Positions 242 to 7,455 of a stretch of 10,719 nt of DNA are shown one piece after another. Origin of the DNA: a bacterium (lineage in GTDB: Bacteria; Arandabacterota; Arandabacteria; Arandabacterales; JALGWA01); contig JASFEA010000108.1 of assembly GCA_050125095.1 (NCBI GenBank), forward strand, positions 1 through 10,719. Reading direction: 5' to 3'. Position numbers and translations under genes: made by a program. Numbering within the stretch: the first letter of the stretch is position 1; every line of letters starts with the position of its first letter. The notes below the pieces were generated by a model that was given only the letters and a program-made list of their open reading frames with translations, was not told the origin of the DNA and did not search any database.

Positions 242-1060
242 ATGGATAGCATCATGGAGTTTATCAGGGCCAACGCCGCCATATACGGGGTCAGAATCAT
301 CACGGCGGTCATCGTATTCGCCATAGGCTGGCCTCTGGCCAGGGTGATTGCCGGCATTTTGGCCAAGATTATGCGGAAGGCCCATATCGATCCGACTCTG
401 GTGGGTTTTGTAAGAACGCTTGCGTATTTCGGCCTGCTCATCTTCGTGATCATAGCGGCCCTTGACCGGCTGGGCGTGCAGACCACGTCCCTGGTCGCTA
501 TTCTGGGCGCCGCCGGCCTGGCGGTGGGTCTTGCTCTGAAGGACACGCTTGCGAATTTCGGGGCAGGTGTTCTCATTATCCTTTTCAAGCCCTTCAAGGT
601 CGGTGACTTTGTCGACGCCGGGGGCCAGATGGGCACGGTGATGAGGGTCTCTGTGTTCAACACGATCCTGGGGAGCCCTGACAACCGCAAGATCATATTG
701 CCCAATTCGATGGTTCTTGCCACGGCCATCACCAATTTCAGCGATATCGAAATGCGGCGTATCGATATGGAGTTCGGCATCTCTTACGAAGACAACATCA
801 GGACCGCCAAGGACATCCTCATGAGGATAGTCACCTCCGACGAGCGCGTCCTCAAGGACCCGGCGCCCGTCGTGGCCGTCTCGGAGCTCGCCGACTCGAG
901 CGTTAACCTCGTCTGCCGTCCCTGGACCAGGCCCGAGGACTACTGGGGCGTGCGATTCGACACGATTGAGAAGGCCAAAGCCGAACTCGAGGCGGCCGGC
1001 ATCACCATACCGTTCCCGCAGCGGGACGTTCATATGTTCGAAGAGAAGAAAGCCGCCTGA
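242..1060 (+). CDS. mscS: Small-conductance mechanosensitive channel, MscS family (272 aa)
   Basis: Three N-terminal TM segments, pore helix 'SLVAILGAAGLAVGLALKDTLANFGAG', 'KPFKVGDFV', 'PNS', 'RRIDMEFGISY', C-terminal 'GITIPFPQRDVH'. SD GGGGAGGG at 227-234. Confidence 0.95.
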   Translation: MDSIMEFIRANAAIYGVRIITAVIVFAIGWPLARVIAGILAKIMRKAHIDPTLVGFVRTLAYFGLLIFVIIAALDRLGVQTTSLVAILGAAGLAVGLALKDTLANFGAGVLIILFKPFKVGDFVDAGGQMGTVMRVSVFNTILGSPDNRKIILPNSMVLATAITNFSDIEMRRIDMEFGISYEDNIRTAKDILMRIVTSDERVLKDPAPVVAVSELADSSVNLVCRPWTRPEDYWGVRFDTIEKAKAELEAAGITIPFPQRDVHMFEEKKAA

Positions 1061-1065
1061 GGAAC

Positions 1066-1244
1066 GGGGTCAGGTCTTGAAATGCACAGTGCATTTCAAG
1101 ACCTGACCCCTGCTTTCCCGGCACCCCCGGCAGAAGTGTAAAAGGCGTTCCGCCGAGGCATCGTGTTGTAAAGAAGCCACCGGTGGAACGCCAAGCAACC
1201 CGCAGGGCTTGCCACTGTGCATTTCAAGACCTGACCCCTGCTTT
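1066..1244. repeat. REP/REPIN-like palindromic intergenic element (GGGGTCAGGTCTTG...CAAGACCTGACCCC type)
   Basis: Perfect 22-1-22 palindrome at 1066-1110. The 28-mer GTGCATTTCAAGACCTGACCCCTGCTTT occurs at both 1089-1116 and 1217-1244. 1066-1091 and 1213-1238 are a perfect 26-bp inverted repeat. Lies between the convergent mscS and porin stop codons. Confidence 0.85.
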
Positions 1245-1273
1245 TGCTGGCCGCCGTCTTCTGACCTCTTAAT

Positions 1274-2470
1274 TTAGAATCCCGTGACGACTCCCAGCAC
1301 CACCCTGTTCTTGTGGGTGGTGAAGCTGTTGGTCCACTCCGCCATGAGGCGTATGTTCCTGGCAAGCAGGTATGTGTAGCTGGCGGTCAGTGTCTCGTAG
1401 TCCAGCTTGTTGAGCTGCGAGTCGACGCCGTTATAGAGCAGCACCAGGTAGTGCCGCGACTTCATGCGGTCACGGGCGCAGACAAGCTCGGCGACAAAGC
1501 CGTCGGTGGAGATGTCCGTGACGTCCTCCTGAACCAGGGGACTGGTGTCCTTGCGGCTGAGGTACTGGAGGGTGAATTCAAAGGGGCCTCCGGCCACATT
1601 GCAATCGACTCCCCAGTAGGTCACCTCGTTGGTGCCCGTCCTGCCTTCCATTTCCACGCCTTCCTTGCCGTAATAGAAGAAAGCGCCGGCGCCGCCGTAG
1701 TCGGTTATGGACTGGAATACCCTTAAGCCCCCGTTCTTGTACCTGTCGTTGTCGAAGTGCCCTGTTTCCTCATCCGCCTCGGGCTTGCCGTTTCCGTTCA
1801 CCAGCATACCTACCAGGTCGGTGCCCGTGCGGTCGATGCCGTAGGTGAGCATGAATCCCCGGTCATATGTGAGGTTGATTGCCGAGTAGCCGACCGAGAC
1901 CTTGTAGATCACGTAGTCTTCATAAGTCAGCCTGAGCTCGCGCTTCATCAGGGGGTCCGAAGTCTGGAACTGGCCCAGCATGATGTCGAAGGGAGCGCCG
2001 CCGATGTCGTTGAAATGAACGTAGGCGTCCTCTATCCCTGCGACCTCGCCGCGCTCCGACATGTAGAAGTAGAAGTAATAGCCGATGTTCTTATACACCG
2101 ACCCGCCGGACATTATCTTCATGCCCCAGGGTATCTGAAAGTCCGTATCGGTATCGGCCCCCTCTCTGTAGACTCCATAGGCGTCGAAACGAATCGACAG
2201 CGGGAAGGTCCTGGGGAGCCAGAGCATGTCGTCGCCCGCCGTGACGTAGTCGCGTTCCTTTTCCTCCTCAGGGATGTAGAAGCCGTTGCCCGCGAACTCA
2301 TCTCCGAAGTCCTTGAGCTTTGGGAAGGGCGCGTGGCACGTGCTGCAGGAGATCTTGTAGCGCCTGGCGAAAGCCGGGATGGCCTCCGCGCCCGGCGGCG
2401 TCAAGAGCGTTATTGTCGCGAACGCCATTACGGCCAGTGCGAGAGCCAGGATACATCTTCTGCGGAGCAT
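1274..2470 (-). CDS. Cyc2-like fused monoheme cytochrome c / outer-membrane beta-barrel porin (398 aa)
   Basis: Signal peptide ending AEA, then 'IPAFARRYKISCSTCHAPFPKLKDFGDEFAGNGF', which fits the Cyc2 N-terminal pattern (PxFAR..CxxCH..PxL..FG..F). The remainder is aromatic/Gly-rich amphipathic beta strands ending in C-terminal Phe (VVLGVVTGF). SD-like AAGGGGG upstream. Confidence 0.8.
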   Translation of the reverse strand: MLRRRCILALALAVMAFATITLLTPPGAEAIPAFARRYKISCSTCHAPFPKLKDFGDEFAGNGFYIPEEEKERDYVTAGDDMLWLPRTFPLSIRFDAYGVYREGADTDTDFQIPWGMKIMSGGSVYKNIGYYFYFYMSERGEVAGIEDAYVHFNDIGGAPFDIMLGQFQTSDPLMKRELRLTYEDYVIYKVSVGYSAINLTYDRGFMLTYGIDRTGTDLVGMLVNGNGKPEADEETGHFDNDRYKNGGLRVFQSITDYGGAGAFFYYGKEGVEMEGRTGTNEVTYWGVDCNVAGGPFEFTLQYLSRKDTSPLVQEDVTDISTDGFVAELVCARDRMKSRHYLVLLYNGVDSQLNKLDYETLTASYTYLLARNIRLMAEWTNSFTTHKNRVVLGVVTGF

Positions 2471-2522
2471 GGCTTAACCCCCTTCTGTTTCAGTGGATGT
2501 CGATCGCTCATTCATAGATCGC

Positions 2523-3869
2523 TCAGTCGTATACCTCTATATATGTCGAGGCCCTGTTTATCTCGATTACCTCGCTCTCCTCCTCGGGGACTTCGAGGAA
2601 GTCGGCGACGGGCTTCACGAGCTTCTGGTAATTCAAGACGGCGCTGAATTCAACCCGCCCGAGGGCTATGTCGTCCGGGAGCTCCCACGTGAAGCTCTCG
2701 ATCTTGGTCTCTCGCGGGCCTATGCGGTAATCGACGCCGAGGGACGCCGTGTTCCATTGCATTATGGTCATGCGCCCCTGCGGGTCGAAGTAGGGCATTC
2801 TGTAAATACGATCGCCCACCGGCACGCCGTCGCGCGCGACGCCTTCGAAACCGGGCATGCCGAGAGGCAGCCCCATGTCCTGGTAGGCCAGGACATCGGC
2901 GGCGATGGTGTACTCCTCTCCCTCGAAGCCTTTGGGGTCGACAGGGATATGGTATGTATTGCCGTCCACGTCCGTGGCCGTGACGTGAAGCCACATTATT
3001 CGATCTTCCACGGACCCGGTCGGCACCTTGTGGCCGGCCTTTGCATTGAAGAGCTGGACGGAGAGCAGCACTACCCCGCCGATCTCCACCTCGCGCTCGT
3101 CCGGGTGCATGCGCAGCTCCACAGCGCTCGCGAGCTTGCCGGGGTCATGGGCTCCGTGGAAGAGGTGCTGGCCCACCAGGTCTTCCCCGGCCATCTTCGC
3201 GCTCCTGCCGCGCGCCCGCGGTATGTGGCAGCGGTGGCACGGCACCTTCTCCGCGGCGTAGGGGCCCTCGCTCCACTCGATCTGGGTGGACTTGACCCAT
3301 ACGCCATAAGGACTCATTTCGTTGTGGCAGGTGCCGCAGAACTCGGCCGTCTGGATAAACTCGCTGTACTCGGTGTCGTGATGCGGCGATGAGCGTCCCG
3401 GCTTGGGGCCGTACTTGATGCGGCCGGGGCTGGATATGTAGTTGAAGTTGTAGGGCACTTCACCCGCGAAACCCGTGATGGTGTGGCAGACTTCGCATGA
3501 CACCGACTCGTTGGCCCTCGAGTTTTCCTCGGGTCTCGGCGGAGGGACGTCTCCCGCCAGATAGGCGATGGGGGTGTGGCACCCGTTACAGTCCGCCTTG
3601 ACGCCGGCGACCATATCGTCCACTTCCGAGTGGGGCACGGCGAGATTGAAGTACTCGATCTCGTCCCAGTGATGCGTGTACGCCTGGGACATCATCGCCT
3701 GCCTCCACTGCTGGTAGAAGTCCGTGTGGCAGCTTTTGCAGACGCCGGGTTTCTCGAAGTCGTCGTATTCGCGCGTGCCGAGGGCATCAACGCCATGTGG
3801 CCCGACCTGGGACATGATGATCGAGGCGGTGAGCATCGTGAATAGCAGAATGATTACAGGGGTGCGCAT
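2523..3869 (-). CDS. Secreted pentaheme c-type cytochrome (c554-like N-terminal heme domain plus ~230-aa heme-free C-terminal domain), 448 aa
   Basis: Five CxxCH motifs (CKSCH, CNGCH, CEVCH, CGTCH, CHRCH). Hydrophobic signal peptide MRTPVIILLFTMLTASIIMS. Start moved to ATG 3869 because of the SD AAGGAGG at 3874-3880. Contains 'GHKVPTG...R.MWLHV'. Confidence 0.9.
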   Translation of the reverse strand: MRTPVIILLFTMLTASIIMSQVGPHGVDALGTREYDDFEKPGVCKSCHTDFYQQWRQAMMSQAYTHHWDEIEYFNLAVPHSEVDDMVAGVKADCNGCHTPIAYLAGDVPPPRPEENSRANESVSCEVCHTITGFAGEVPYNFNYISSPGRIKYGPKPGRSSPHHDTEYSEFIQTAEFCGTCHNEMSPYGVWVKSTQIEWSEGPYAAEKVPCHRCHIPRARGRSAKMAGEDLVGQHLFHGAHDPGKLASAVELRMHPDEREVEIGGVVLLSVQLFNAKAGHKVPTGSVEDRIMWLHVTATDVDGNTYHIPVDPKGFEGEEYTIAADVLAYQDMGLPLGMPGFEGVARDGVPVGDRIYRMPYFDPQGRMTIMQWNTASLGVDYRIGPRETKIESFTWELPDDIALGRVEFSAVLNYQKLVKPVADFLEVPEEESEVIEINRASTYIEVYD

Positions 3870-3897
3870 ATTGCCTCCTTGCATTAAGGTCCCCGGA

Positions 3898-3925
3898 AGC
3901 ATAGCACACGGCCTTGATTTCTCAA
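3898..3925 (-). promoter_or_regulatory. sigma70-like promoter (extended -10) of the cytochrome/porin unit
   Basis: Minus strand TTGAGA(3925-3920)-N16-TATGCT(3903-3898), with TGn directly before the -10. Confidence 0.5.
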
Positions 3926-4025
3926 AATGGTAAAGCGATTGCCGGTGCAGCGGGATCGGTGCGGGATGAGAAGAGGGTGCGGTAGCCGGCTCCGGGCACT
4001 CTGCAGCGTGAGGCTTTCTGCGGCG

Positions 4026-6110
4026 TCAGGCCTTCTTCTTACGCTCTTCGATTATCTCTTCGGCCAGCTTGAACGGGACGGCTTCGTAGTTCTCGAAGTG
4101 CATCGTGAACTCGCCGCGGCCGCTGGTTATGGTACGGAGTTCGGAGGCATAGCCGAACATCTCCGCGAGCGGGACCCTTGCTCGCATGATTGAGACCTTG
4201 GCCTTGTTCTCCAGCTCCCCGATCTTCCCCCGCTTGGAACAGAGGCTCGACGTCACCGCTCCCACGTATTCCTCCGGGGCAGCGACCTCCACACTCATGA
4301 TGGGCTCGAGAAGCTCGAGGCCGGCCTTCTTGCATGCTTCCCGGAAACCGGTTCTCGCGCAGACGCGAAAGGCCTGGTCGGAGGAGTCTACTTCATGGAA
4401 TGACCCGTCGAGAATCGTGGCCTTGATGTCGACCATGGGACAGCCGGCATACGGGCCTTCGGCCATGGCGTCGACTATGCCGCGCTCCACGGCGGGTATG
4501 AACTGGCTGGGGATCCGGCCGCCCTGGACCCTGTTCTCGAAGCGGAAGCCTATGCCGGGTTCCCCGGGCTCGATCCGCATGATCACGTGGGCGTACTGGC
4601 CGTGGCCACCTGTCTGCTTGACGTGCCTGTAGTCGTGCTCGACGGGCCCTATTATGGTCTCGCGGTAGGCAACCTCCGGCTTACCGACCTCGACGCCGAC
4701 ATTGAACTCGCGCTTGAGCCGATCGACGATGACCTCGATATGTAGCTCGCCCATGCCGGATATAATAACCTCGCCGGTCTCCTCATGGGTCTTTACCGTG
4801 AAGGTCGGGTCCTCCTCCGAAAGGCGTGCCAGCGCCCGCCCGAGCTTGTCGCGGTCGGCGCGGCTCACCGGCTTGACGGCCATGTCTATTACCGGGGCGG
4901 GGAACTCGATTGACTCGAGCACAATGGGGTGATCCATGTTGCAGATGGTGTCCCCGGTATATGTGTCTGATAGCCCGACCACGGCGCCGACATTGCCGGC
5001 CGGGAGCTCGTCGATGACCTGTTGCTTGTTGGCGTGCATGAGGAAGAGCCGCCCGATGCGCTGCCTTCGGTCGCGCGTCGAATTGTAAACGAACTCGCCG
5101 GACCTGAGTGTCCCGGAATAAACGCGCACATAAGTGAGCTTTCCCATGTGCTTGTCCGACATGATCTTGAAGGCCAGCGCCGCCAGCGGCGCACCGTCAT
5201 GCGGGTGTCGCAACAGCTCCCGGCTGCTCTCGGTATGCGTGCCGATGACGGGCGGCAGATCGACCGGCGATGGCAGGTAATCGATGATTGCGTCAAGGAG
5301 CCGCCTCACCCCTTTGTTCTTAAAGGCCGCACCGCACAGCACGGGGATAATGCGCCCGTCAATGGTGGCCTTGCGCATGGCGCTGACCACTTCTTCATGC
5401 CCCGGCGTTTCGCCTTCGATGAACTTGCCCATGAGACGATCGTCCTGCTCGCTGATGCGCTCTATCATCACGGCTTCGGCCTCCCGCGCGCGCACCACAT
5501 AATCATCGGGTATGGCTTCCTCGCGAAGCTCTATGCCGTCGGCTGTATCGTCGTAGTATATGGCCTTCATGTCCACCAGGTCGATGAGCCCCCTGAAGGC
5601 CTCTCCCTCTCCTATGGGGATAACCACGGGTACGGCATTGGCGCCGAGCTCTTCTTTTATCTCTTTGACCACTCCATTGAAATCCGCGCCGACGCGGTCC
5701 ATTTTGTTTATGAACGCGATGCGGGGCACAAGGTATTTGACCGCCTGCCGCCAGACCGTCTCGGACTGGGGCTGAACGCCGCCGACGGCGCAGAAGAGCG
5801 CCACGGTGCCGTCCAGTACCCTGAGGGAGCGCTCGACCTCGGCGGTGAAATCGACATGGCCCGGAGTGTCGATGATATTGACTCTGTGGTCCTTCCAGTA
5901 AGTCGTGGTAGCGGCAGACGTGATTGTTATTCCGCGCTCCTTTTCCTGGGCCATCCAGTCCATCTGGGCCTCGCCGTCGTGCACCTCGCCCATCCTGTGG
6001 CTCTTTCCCGTGAAGTAGAGAATGCGCTCGGTGACCGTGGTCTTGCCCGCGTCGATGTGGGCCATCAGGCCGATGTTGCGGATCCTGCTTATGTCGAAAT
6101 TCGCAGCCAT
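4026..6110 (-). CDS. fusA: Translation elongation factor G, stand-alone copy (694 aa)
   Basis: G1 [10 protein letters not shown]2 ERGITI, G3 DTPGHVDF, G4 NKMD, 'GMGELH', domain IV 'KQTGGHGQY' and 'GSFHEVDSS', domain V 'LLEPIM...VPLAEMFGY'. Full EF-G length. Confidence 0.97.
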
Positions 6111-6630: not shown

Positions 6631-7344
6631 CTAAAGGCCCAGGAACTGTATGGCCAGCCCGCTGAGGGTTATGGCGGCTCCCGCCAGGGCGTGCGAGTAG
6701 CGCTCCAGCTGCTTTATCGGGAGCCGCGAGATGCCCAGCGAGCATGCCATGACTATGCCGAGCATTGTGGATATGGTTACGACGCCGAACACGCCGGCTA
6801 CCAGCACGACCCCGGTGAAGCTGCTCTTGGCGGCAGGGTACATGAGGAGGGGTATCAGGGGCTCGCACGGCCCCAGAACGAATATGGTGAAGAGCACCCA
6901 TGGCGTCACGTTCTTCTTGCCCTGCTCCTCATGGGCATGGGTGTGGCCGTCGGTGTGGACATGCTCGTGGCTGTGAGCGACTCCGCATGAGTGGAAGTGC
7001 TTGTGTTCATGCGGCCGGTTCCTTATGGCCCGGCGGAGCCCCCAGGCGAAATACACGAGGCCGAAAGCTATGAGCAGCCAGGCCGCGAGGTTGCCCCGCA
7101 CGCCCTCCAGGGCCTCCAGCCGCGTAACGCCTATGCCGGCGGCGATGCCGATCATGCCGAGCAGTATTGAGCCGGCGATATGCCCGATTCCGCAGAGTGT
7201 GGTTATATATGCGGTCTTCGCAAGAGACCAGTTTCTCGCCCTGCCCATGACTATGAAGGGAAGGTAGTGGTCGGGCCCGAACAGGGTATGGAAGAAGCCG
7301 ATGGATGCGGCCGTGATTGTCAGTACCGCCAGTTCCTGTGACAC
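6631..7344 (-). CDS. His-rich nickel/cobalt transporter-like membrane protein (UreH/RcnA/NiCoT-related), 237 aa
   Basis: TM1 motif 'GFFHTLFGPDHYLP', 'GIGHIAGS', His-rich loop 'HEHKHFHSCGVAHSHEHVHTDGHTHAH', 'GPCEPLIP', about 6 TM segments. Start placed at GTG 7344 behind the strong SD GGAGGAGGAGGT. Confidence 0.8.
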   Translation of the reverse strand: MSQELAVLTITAASIGFFHTLFGPDHYLPFIVMGRARNWSLAKTAYITTLCGIGHIAGSILLGMIGIAAGIGVTRLEALEGVRGNLAAWLLIAFGLVYFAWGLRRAIRNRPHEHKHFHSCGVAHSHEHVHTDGHTHAHEEQGKKNVTPWVLFTIFVLGPCEPLIPLLMYPAAKSSFTGVVLVAGVFGVVTISTMLGIVMACSLGISRLPIKQLERYSHALAGAAITLSGLAIQFLGL

Positions 7345-7420
7345 GCTCTGAACCTCCTCCTCCTGCGGGGTCGCCGGGACCGCCGGGGGGGATCGCAGAA
7401 ACCCGGCCTGCCGCCGGGAC

Positions 7421-7455
7421 ATACATACTGTATGCATACGGCCCTGTGTCCGCAA
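7421..7455 (-). promoter_or_regulatory. sigma70-like promoter with overlapping palindromic operator for the Ni/Co transporter gene
   Basis: Minus strand TTGCGG(7455-7450)-N17-TACAGT(7432-7427). The imperfect 8-1-8 palindrome ATACATAC-T-GTATGCAT (7421-7437) and the perfect GTATGCATAC (7430-7439) cover the -10. Confidence 0.55.

Follow-up and report, generated by a model that had tools for sequence, protein, structure and literature searches.

Introduction

The cyc2 gene is widely used, via FeGenie, as a marker gene for microbial iron oxidation. The members of the family that have been assayed, i.e., Cyc2 of Acidithiobacillus ferrooxidans, of Mariprofundus PV-1 and of Ghiorsea, as well as Cyt572 of Leptospirillum, are described as Fe(II) oxidases (PMC8406198, PMC7029218, PMC13692758). 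According to Keffer et al. 2021 (mBio, PMC8406198), Cyc2 proteins are recognized by a signal peptide, one CxxCH heme motif with AxPxFAR[Q/K][T/Y] upstream and PxL downstream of it, a 16-strand porin resembling OprO and OprP, and a length of at least 365 amino acids (aa). In the same paper the heme is modelled as a plug at the periplasmic mouth of the barrel, which limits the substrate to small solutes able to enter the pore. Here, a stretch of bacterial DNA is analyzed that carries a gene for such a Cyc2-type pore directly downstream of a gene for a pentaheme c-type cytochrome; the stretch (hereafter the window) is an entire 10.7-kb contig (10,719 nucleotides; JASFEA010000108.1, or C108) from a 3.35-Mb draft genome that is 91% complete.

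The second protein of this pair also has described counterparts. In a study of cable bacteria (PMC11976967), the T. tepidum cytochrome c552, ExtKL and Gsu2801 are grouped as the 'PHC' family, in which a pentaheme domain is joined to an Ig-like domain; the function of c552 itself is given there as unknown. ExtKL/MccSep is reported as a periplasmic polysulfide reductase with an active site formed by a heme-ligating Cys and a selenocysteine, and is found mainly in Desulfobacterota and Nitrospirota (10.1101/2025.11.18.688581), taxa that differ from those of the window-type pair. Other routes across the outer membrane, including MtrCAB, MtoAB/PioAB and the Geobacter Pcc systems, are described as barrels of 20-plus strands that lack heme and surround a membrane-spanning deca- or octaheme wire (PMC8406198, PMC10654088).

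The window locus resembles each of these systems in part. With Cyc2 of A. ferrooxidans, Mariprofundus PV-1 and Ghiorsea bivora and with Leptospirillum Cyt572, the window pore has in common a signal peptide, a single CxxCH close to the start of the mature protein in an A-x-P-x-F-A-R-x-Y context, PxL and a 16-strand OprP/OprO-like barrel, and the proteins are alike in length (about 390-480 aa; the Ghiorsea protein has 389 aa). It differs from them by an Arg at the [Q/K] position of the motif, which is shared by most of its close homologs, and by its setting: window-type hosts are heterotroph-like lineages of the FCB group, the window host has no visible oxidase, and the pore has a fixed pentaheme partner, whereas the neighbors in the rus operon are cyc1, rusticyanin and cox genes. 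The cytochrome resembles T. tepidum c552 (5ZE8) in having five colinear CxxCH motifs and in length (448 vs. 435 aa), and its C-terminal half, predicted to be beta-rich, sits where the PHC proteins have their Ig-like domain; the sequence similarity to c552 is, however, only distant. As in the extHIJKL porin cluster of Geobacter sulfurreducens, a periplasmic pentaheme gene adjoins a gene for an outer-membrane beta-barrel, but the window cytochrome scores far below the ExtKL family cutoff and lacks both the heme-ligating Cys and the Sec/Cys of ExtKL/MccSep. The porin of that cluster, ExtI, is a larger protein without heme. In contrast to the porin-cytochrome conduits, the window barrel has 16 strands, is too narrow to enclose a heme wire and bears a heme of its own, and no gene for an extracellular cytochrome is linked to the window-type pair among 80 loci. 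By its strand number, the pore's own heme and the lack of a third conserved gene, the pair falls outside the complexes of the Mtr, Mto, Pio or Pcc type.

The analysis presented below indicates that the two proteins very probably function together as an electron-transfer unit, which probably moves electrons across the outer membrane.

Results

A two-gene unit conserved across phyla

Both genes are located on the minus strand, with the cytochrome gene first, followed by a short gap and the pore gene:

2523..3869, minus strand: pentaheme c-type cytochrome, probably 448 aa (the open reading frame, ORF, is open to 3902, which would give 459 aa)
2471..2522, minus strand: intergenic gap of 52 nucleotides (nt), with the ribosome-binding-like site GAAGGGGG 7 nt before the ATG of the barrel gene
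1274..2470, minus strand: Cyc2-family fused monoheme cytochrome-porin, 398 aa, assigned by homology, AlphaFold2 (AF2) model and Foldseek

An earlier sequence-only reading of the window had described a secreted five-heme cytochrome, a 52-bp gap and a protein with a single CxxCH at 2333-2347. All three descriptions hold: ORF 2523-3902 encodes five CxxCH motifs, the gap is exactly 2471-2522, and CSTCH is found at 2333-2347 in the context AEA/IPAFARRYKIS-CSTCH-APF-PKL-KDFGDEF (the slash marks the putative cleavage site). Judged by their homologs, which number in the thousands, both genes are far from chance ORFs: 4773 of 8000 scored candidates match the pore at E<=1e-3 and 2624 of 6941 match the cytochrome, and an exhaustive search for the pore returned 1988 matching cluster representatives, 97 of them at E<=1e-30.

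Related loci were collected by scanning one genome per species (185,579 species) with the tight alignment A2, which returned only close relatives. A relative is encoded by 196 of the 225 candidate stretches, and the best 80 of these 196 were analyzed; they were picked by likeness to the barrel and hence are not a random sample. In 79 of the 80 loci the cytochrome gene immediately precedes the barrel gene on the same strand, usually by 0-282 nt, and in the lone exception (L039) the contig begins 47 nt before the barrel gene, leaving no room for an upstream gene. The loci carry the labels KSB1, Calditrichota, Krumholzibacteriota, Latescibacterota, Eisenbacteria, Gemmatimonadetes, Fibrobacteraceae, Neomarinimicrobiota, Zhuqueibacterota and 'Cytophagia', and span at least eight phylum labels. 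The synteny of the pair, on which its proposed role as an electron path had been made to depend, is therefore conserved across genomes, and the suggestion of a probably uncultured lineage agrees with the presence of the pair in many uncultured sediment and wetland bacteria. When the ORFs flanking the 80 loci were clustered, the barrel family was recovered at all 80 and the cytochrome family at 78. Next in size is a cluster from 67 loci made up of shadow ORFs antisense to the barrel and cytochrome genes, and any other real family is confined to at most 14 of the 80 loci.

The same flanks (loci L007-L086) contain a secreted protein of about 271 aa with a CTCH motif near the pair in 12 of the 80 loci, and in 11 of the 80 a membrane protein of about 279 aa that, by eye, is CcsA/ResC-like (cytochrome c biogenesis).

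Within the window's phylum, represented by 18 genomes, a close ortholog of the barrel and the pentaheme gene occur in the same three genomes (G000, G011, and G016) and neither occurs in the other 15, including both genomes of the same genus (83% and 93% complete), so that the two genes co-occur as had been anticipated for a functional pair. For the window and the 67 loci where both genes are nearly complete in length, the divergences of the two proteins are correlated (Pearson 0.64 over 2278 pairs), a value not reached in any of 999 Mantel permutations; the mean pairwise identity is 0.67 for the pentaheme and 0.59 for the pore. A FastTree phylogeny of the concatenated pair groups by phylum label, with 10 label changes vs. 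19.9 in shuffles (none of 200 as low), and places the window pair next to L062, inside a supported Krumholzibacteriota/Eisenbacteria/Latescibacterota clade. The GC fractions of the two genes (0.587 and 0.618) fall inside the genome range (0.602 +/- 0.024) and do not indicate recent transfer. Because the tree clusters by phylum label, the two genes share the same 3-of-18 occurrence and compositional signs of transfer are lacking, the two-gene unit looks old and mostly vertically inherited, with losses.

A search for longer forms returned no real fusion of the two genes, an absence that is weak evidence. One metagenome protein of 964 aa (P0411) that appears as a pentaheme-barrel fusion was rejected as a frameshifted read-through of the adjacent pair, as it contains an internal barrel signal peptide and an Arg/Gly/Pro-rich low-complexity tail. 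Prediction of a complex of pore residues 30-398 and cytochrome residues 33-459 with four hemes scored 0.00 against a mark of 0.32, which is uninformative either way.

Cyc2-type anatomy of the pore

The pore protein displays the following features:

2381..2470, minus strand: signal peptide, residues 1-30 (...PPGAEA/IP), from inspection and a model helix at residues 2-22
2357..2383, minus strand: Cyc2 family motif A-I-P-A-F-A-R-R-Y, residues 30-38, by the motif definition of Keffer 2021
2333..2347, minus strand: sole heme motif CSTCH, residues 42-46; C42, C45, and H46 are invariant in the 60-sequence alignment A1
2315..2323, minus strand: PKL (PxL in the family), whose P is the fourth residue past the heme His; A1 shows P50 as invariant and L52 in at least 90%
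1280..2197, minus strand: 16-strand beta-barrel, residues 92-397, from the AF2 strand list and Foldseek

The N-terminus, MLRRRCILALALAVMAFATITLLTPPGAEA/IP, was judged by eye to hold a hydrophobic helix and an A-x-A site. No family in Pfam or NCBIfam covers the pore protein, and a sequence search of the PDB yielded no meaningful match. The AF2 model, built on alignment A1, has a mean pLDDT (predicted value of the local distance difference test) of 88.3 and a predicted TM-score (pTM) of 0.85, and contains 16 beta-strands, a signal helix and a short helical segment around the heme site. Foldseek comparison of this model with the PDB retrieved 16-strand porins, with OmpK36, OprP 2O4V, OmpU and OprO 4RJW as top matches; both Opr proteins rank in the top eight (TMq 0.59 for each; E 4.9e-11 for OprP). 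The confident porin model bears out the predicted beta-barrel, and the signal peptide, the one CxxCH in the family motif, the PKL, the OprP/OprO-like fold and the length of 398 aa together support the Cyc2-type architecture that the sequence-only reading had proposed.

All features listed by Keffer et al. are found in the window pore except for one residue, an R in place of [Q/K] in AIPAFARRY. Three residues separate the Y of this motif from the heme C, and PMC8406198 places the motif 5 aa upstream of the heme site. Exactly one CxxCH is present in all 120 closest homologs and in 98 of 150 listed representatives; the remaining 52 have none, and nearly all of these are partial sequences whose alignment is restricted to the part downstream of the heme segment. 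The motif is in register in 115 of the 120 closest homologs, and 96 of these 115 carry Arg at the [Q/K] position, from which this Arg is, at the level of aligned homologs, a property of the subfamily and not of the window protein alone. Of the 120 closest homologs, 11 satisfy the strict pattern PxFAR[Q/K][T/Y], as do 50 of the 98 representatives that have a heme motif; these numbers rise to 107 and 73, respectively, when R or H is allowed. PxL occurs at +4/+5 in all 120 close homologs.

Since the curated Cyc2 tree used the strict motif screen, it would have dropped most of the Arg subfamily, which calls based on hidden Markov models, such as those of FeGenie, may keep. A hydrothermal-vent survey (PMC9769843) reports FeGenie Cyc2 homologs in metagenome-assembled genomes (MAGs) of Calditrichota, Eisenbacteria, Gemmatimonadota, Krumholzibacteriota and KSB1, and assigns about 75% of its Cyc2 matches to cluster III. 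Two of our loci bear MAG labels of this survey and contain one full-length Cyc2-like gene each, which may be among those counted there. The ten most distant full-length pore representatives include no known iron oxidizers and bear only MAG labels (Brocadiaceae, Deltaproteobacteria, and Gammaproteobacteria).

A sister Cyc2-like subfamily was also encountered, with proteins of 419-428 aa that carry the motif AIPAFARKHGFNCNMCH...KLNDFG and are about 25-29% identical to the window barrel (tblastn). Its pore gene lies directly downstream, on the same strand, of a gene for a di-heme cytochrome c peroxidase of 354-371 aa (CCP_MauG, E about 1e-60) at three loci (L004, G012:C78; L005, G003:C3; L006, G015:C67) of three related genomes from the window's phylum. 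This suggests that Cyc2-like pores come with differing dedicated periplasmic partners.

A pentaheme cytochrome distantly related to c552 and ExtKL

The cytochrome has an N-terminal signal sequence without a lipobox Cys. Its cysteines are confined to the five CxxCH motifs and there is no in-frame stop codon. The motifs were assigned from the sequence and from A3, an alignment of 32 sequences:

3726..3740, minus strand: heme motif 1, CKSCH, with Cys and His invariant in A3
3576..3590, minus strand: heme motif 2, CNGCH
3483..3497, minus strand: heme motif 3, CEVCH
3324..3338, minus strand: heme motif 4, CGTCH
3225..3239, minus strand: heme motif 5, CHRCH
2526..3140, minus strand: very highly conserved C-terminal beta-rich half, about residues 255-459, a candidate Ig-like domain as in c552 and ExtKL; strands are predicted here and many columns are invariant

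The AF2 model of the cytochrome is poor overall (pLDDT 58.9) and contains strands at residues 261-458, with local pLDDT up to 94. The protein matches Pfam Cytochrome_C554/C7 and, over residues 133-316, the NCBIfam model for the ExtKL (seleno)protein, NF040886, at 44.5 bits vs. a cutoff of 250. One solved structure was matched, the penta-heme cytochrome c552 of T. tepidum (5ZE8), at E 1.1e-5 with the single sequence and at E 2.5e-9 with the A3 profile; two colinear stretches cover motifs 1-3 and motifs 4-5, and the alignment of the C-terminal stretch is not significant. By these profile matches the cytochrome is a distant relative of c552 and ExtKL, in line with the earlier remark that the partner differs from the small c4-type cytochromes usually linked to Cyc2. 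It is 68-87% identical to the 31 aligned homologs, with long invariant stretches and many invariant polar residues. A role as the MccSep/ExtKL polysulfide reductase itself was ruled out by the low family score and because both defining active-site residues, the heme-ligating Cys and the Sec/Cys, are lacking.

Gene starts, signals and neighbors

Two further features precede the cytochrome gene:

3898..3925, minus strand: promoter-like TTGAGA-16 nt-TATGCT with an upstream TG, matching 9 of 12 consensus positions
3874..3879, minus strand: Shine-Dalgarno site AGGAGG, separated by 4 nt from the ATG at 3869, from sequence reading

The start of the cytochrome is most likely the second ATG (3869), 33 nt downstream of the ORF start at 3902, because it is preceded, at a distance of 4 nt, by AGGAGG and because the alignment with homologs begins at this Met; the majority of the homologs listed are 446-450 aa long. 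The upstream ATG (3902) falls within the -10-like hexamer, which agrees with the downstream start. The promoter-like element noted in the sequence-only reading is indeed present (3925 to 3898), but it is weak statistically, with three such sites in 1000-4200 vs. 1.2 +/- 1.2 in shuffles, by a consensus that may not be that of this lineage. No terminator-like site was found on the minus strand within the 52-nt gap (2471-2522), and Rfam and tRNA scans of the window gave no matches.

In two metatranscriptome runs of one wetland sample from one study, for which carry-over of DNA is possible, three short contigs match the barrel gene and its 3' end at 100% identity (1212-1362, 1433-1583, and 1768-2009), a weak hint that the barrel gene is expressed in this sample. 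None of the RNA contigs from these runs covers the cytochrome gene or the gene junction.

The flanking genes are ordinary and unrelated to the pair: MscS (242-1060, plus strand), EF-G (4026-6110, minus strand), a DsbD_2-like membrane protein and a PAS hybrid histidine kinase. The DsbD_2-like protein (6631-7455, minus strand; 274 aa, 27.9 bits) has a His-rich loop (HEHKHFHSCGVAHSHEHVHTDGHTHAHEE) and looks more like a metal transporter than like a cytochrome-biogenesis protein. Just past the MscS stop codon (1066-1110), a perfect 22-bp palindrome is located, a third arm copy of which is found at 1213-1244, 30 nt after the barrel stop. The arm, which has 185 matches (<=2 mismatches) spread over 82 contigs of the genome, resembles a family of REP-like extragenic palindromes and possibly also acts as a terminator between the convergent genes. 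Finally, an ORF cut by the contig end (10306-10719, minus strand) encodes a C-terminal FlgD_ig-like domain (36.3 bits); because FlgD_ig co-occurs with a sorting tail of the type IX secretion system (T9SS) on contig C105 of the same genome, this protein may be another T9SS cargo.

Discussion

A possible inward route for electrons

For the direction of transfer we tentatively favor an inward flow fed by Fe2+, with the pentaheme as collector, a reading based on analogy with Cyc2 and to which we would assign somewhat less than an even chance. The first gene would provide a soluble periplasmic pentaheme cytochrome of the c552/ExtKL kind, and the second a 16-strand outer-membrane pore with an N-terminal segment that carries one c-type heme, like the Cyc2 iron oxidases. 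A small dissolved reductant, most probably Fe2+, would enter the narrow pore and donate an electron to the heme at its periplasmic mouth, where the pentaheme would dock, take up electrons and pass them to a periplasmic or inner-membrane sink of the host. In hosts that have an oxidase, this could serve as the sink; in the others, a periplasmic reductase might, the di-heme peroxidase found at another site of the window host's genome being one example. Besides the Fe(II) oxidation reported for the assayed Cyc2 proteins and the modelled plug position of the heme, two observations argue for this direction: the sister subfamily of three related genomes is paired with an electron-consuming di-heme cytochrome c peroxidase, and the host, which encodes cytochrome c maturation, also has a CCP_MauG peroxidase as a possible electron sink. 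The heme potential does not settle the direction, because reported Cyc2 values range from -130 mV (Ghiorsea) to +208 mV (PV-1).

Several results weigh against an inward, Fe2+-fed flow. In the 91% complete host genome, searches for a heme-copper oxidase, cytochrome bd, RuBisCO and an NrfD-type module, each of which recovered its family in 4 to 9 of 14 control genomes, found none, and the genes around other redox genes look anaerobic (rubredoxin, rubrerythrin, flavodiiron-like proteins and cytoplasmic bifurcating-type molybdoenzymes); because of these absences and this context, an energy-yielding aerobic iron oxidation chain is not visible. The host is not alone in this respect. In a census of 50 of the 80 pair-bearing genomes, completeness not being given, 32 have a member of the heme-copper oxidase family and 18 have none, of which 10 contain only a bd oxidase and 8 contain neither. 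Bd oxidases draw on quinol and not on periplasmic cytochrome c. For at least 5 of the 32 (G028, G050, G051, G062, and G064), the only matches are frames of 699-770 aa (E 1e-54 to 1e-64), whose size and score suggest nitric oxide reductases. Classic aerobic Cyc2 iron oxidation is hence not the general explanation for the pair, given the oxidase-free host and the 18 of 50 genomes without a heme-copper oxidase. Moreover, c552 is described as low-potential (PMC11976967) and ExtKL as a terminal reductase (10.1101/2025.11.18.688581), both of which fit outward flow or catalysis better, and the pentaheme is better conserved than the pore (0.67 vs. 0.59), with many invariant polar residues, which is more enzyme-like than relay-like.

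Alternative functions of the pair

The foremost alternative, which we consider rather unlikely, is that electrons leave the cell: the pentaheme would take them from the quinol pool or from periplasmic dehydrogenases and reduce the pore heme, which in turn would reduce a small soluble acceptor (chelated Fe(III), a small quinone or similar), so that the pair would serve fermenting or anaerobically respiring heterotrophs as an electron sink. An anaerobe-like host without O2 reductases and the 8 of 50 genomes without either oxidase family are in line with such a role, as are the low potential cited for c552, the -130 mV measured for one Cyc2, by which Cyc2-type hemes are not restricted to high potentials, and the surveys that report Cyc2 homologs in relatives of Fe(III) reducers. 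The host furthermore offers a candidate surface cytochrome in an 885-aa hexaheme protein. However, no quinol dehydrogenase of the NapC/NrfH/CymA type is present among the five ORFs with at least two CxxCH motifs, the only ones of that kind in the host genome, and the NrfD module was not found either. A lone heme at the periplasmic mouth cannot reach insoluble acceptors, none of the assayed Cyc2 proteins is reported as a reductase in the cited sources, and the peroxidase-paired sister subfamily favors inward flow.

The 885-aa protein itself (L087; G000:C105:6562-9219) is secreted, is one of those five ORFs, and has sub-cutoff matches to MtrC/MtrF domain II/IV, Big_7, FlgD_ig and a T9SS C-terminal sorting domain. 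These matches make it a candidate for a multiheme cytochrome of the cell surface that leaves the cell by type IX secretion.

Less probable again, though not by far, is a pentaheme that is itself an enzyme, i.e., one that terminally reduces or oxidizes a small sulfur, nitrogen or oxygen compound, with the pore acting as its substrate channel and electron relay; its models would be the relatives ExtKL/MccSep and cores of the NrfA/MccA type. ExtKL/MccSep is reported as a periplasmic pentaheme polysulfide reductase with a cap-and-Ig-stem build (10.1101/2025.11.18.688581), the window cytochrome is weakly homologous to ExtKL and c552, and its conservation across phyla, in which many His, Asp, Glu, Arg and Lys residues are invariant, is unusual. 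Against catalysis stand the missing MccSep residues (heme-ligating Cys and Sec/Cys) and the uniform CxxCH motifs, none of the five being a CxxCK as in NrfA. That the two genes are merely co-inherited neighbors with separate functions, a heme-decorated porin and an unrelated periplasmic cytochrome, is very improbable: adjacent genes co-diverge anyway, but adjacency, order, strand and short spacing are held in 79 of 80 loci from many phyla while other neighbors change, presence and absence of the two genes agree perfectly in 18 genomes, and both products are secreted c-type cytochromes.

Implications for the Cyc2 family

The pore type is already known, and surveys count such pores as Cyc2 cluster III homologs. 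A literature description of a Cyc2-type pore in fixed pairing with a c552/ExtKL-like pentaheme was not found, and figures or supplements may hold one. As far as known, the following are new: the oxidase-free host together with the count of 18 in 50, the Arg signature by which the subfamily mostly fails the strict screen, the similarity of the cytochrome profile to 5ZE8, the lack of the MccSep active-site residues and the pairing of a sister subfamily with a peroxidase.

The pair offers biochemistry a minimal module for outer-membrane electron transfer, with six hemes in two proteins, and the unexplained c552/PHC cytochromes gain a link to an outer-membrane partner. In one large Cyc2-like subfamily, the pore gene and a gene for a c552/ExtKL-like pentaheme form a fixed two-gene unit, the subfamily being represented by at least 196 loci in 185,579 species genomes and by thousands of metagenome proteins. 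Surveys treat cyc2 hits from KSB1, Calditrichota, Krumholzibacteriota, Eisenbacteria and lineages related to these as potential iron oxidizers. Since this subfamily mostly fails the strict published motif screen (Arg for Gln/Lys) and occurs in genomes without a visible oxidase fed by cytochrome c, the meaning of 'cyc2-positive' becomes testable. A broader proposal, which we regard as speculative and improbable as it stands, is that Cyc2-like heme pores are general outer-membrane 'electron inlets' with dedicated periplasmic partners, such as the pentaheme of the window and the di-heme peroxidase of the sister subfamily, rather than markers of iron oxidases as such, and that they pass electrons from dissolved Fe2+ to reductases in the periplasm by which peroxide or other oxidants are removed. 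Such inlets, in anaerobes and facultative anaerobes living in iron-rich sediments with oscillating redox conditions, would shield the cell from Fenton chemistry rather than provide lithotrophic energy, and, if this is true, many 'cyc2-positive' genomes in surveys would not be iron-oxidizing lithotrophs.

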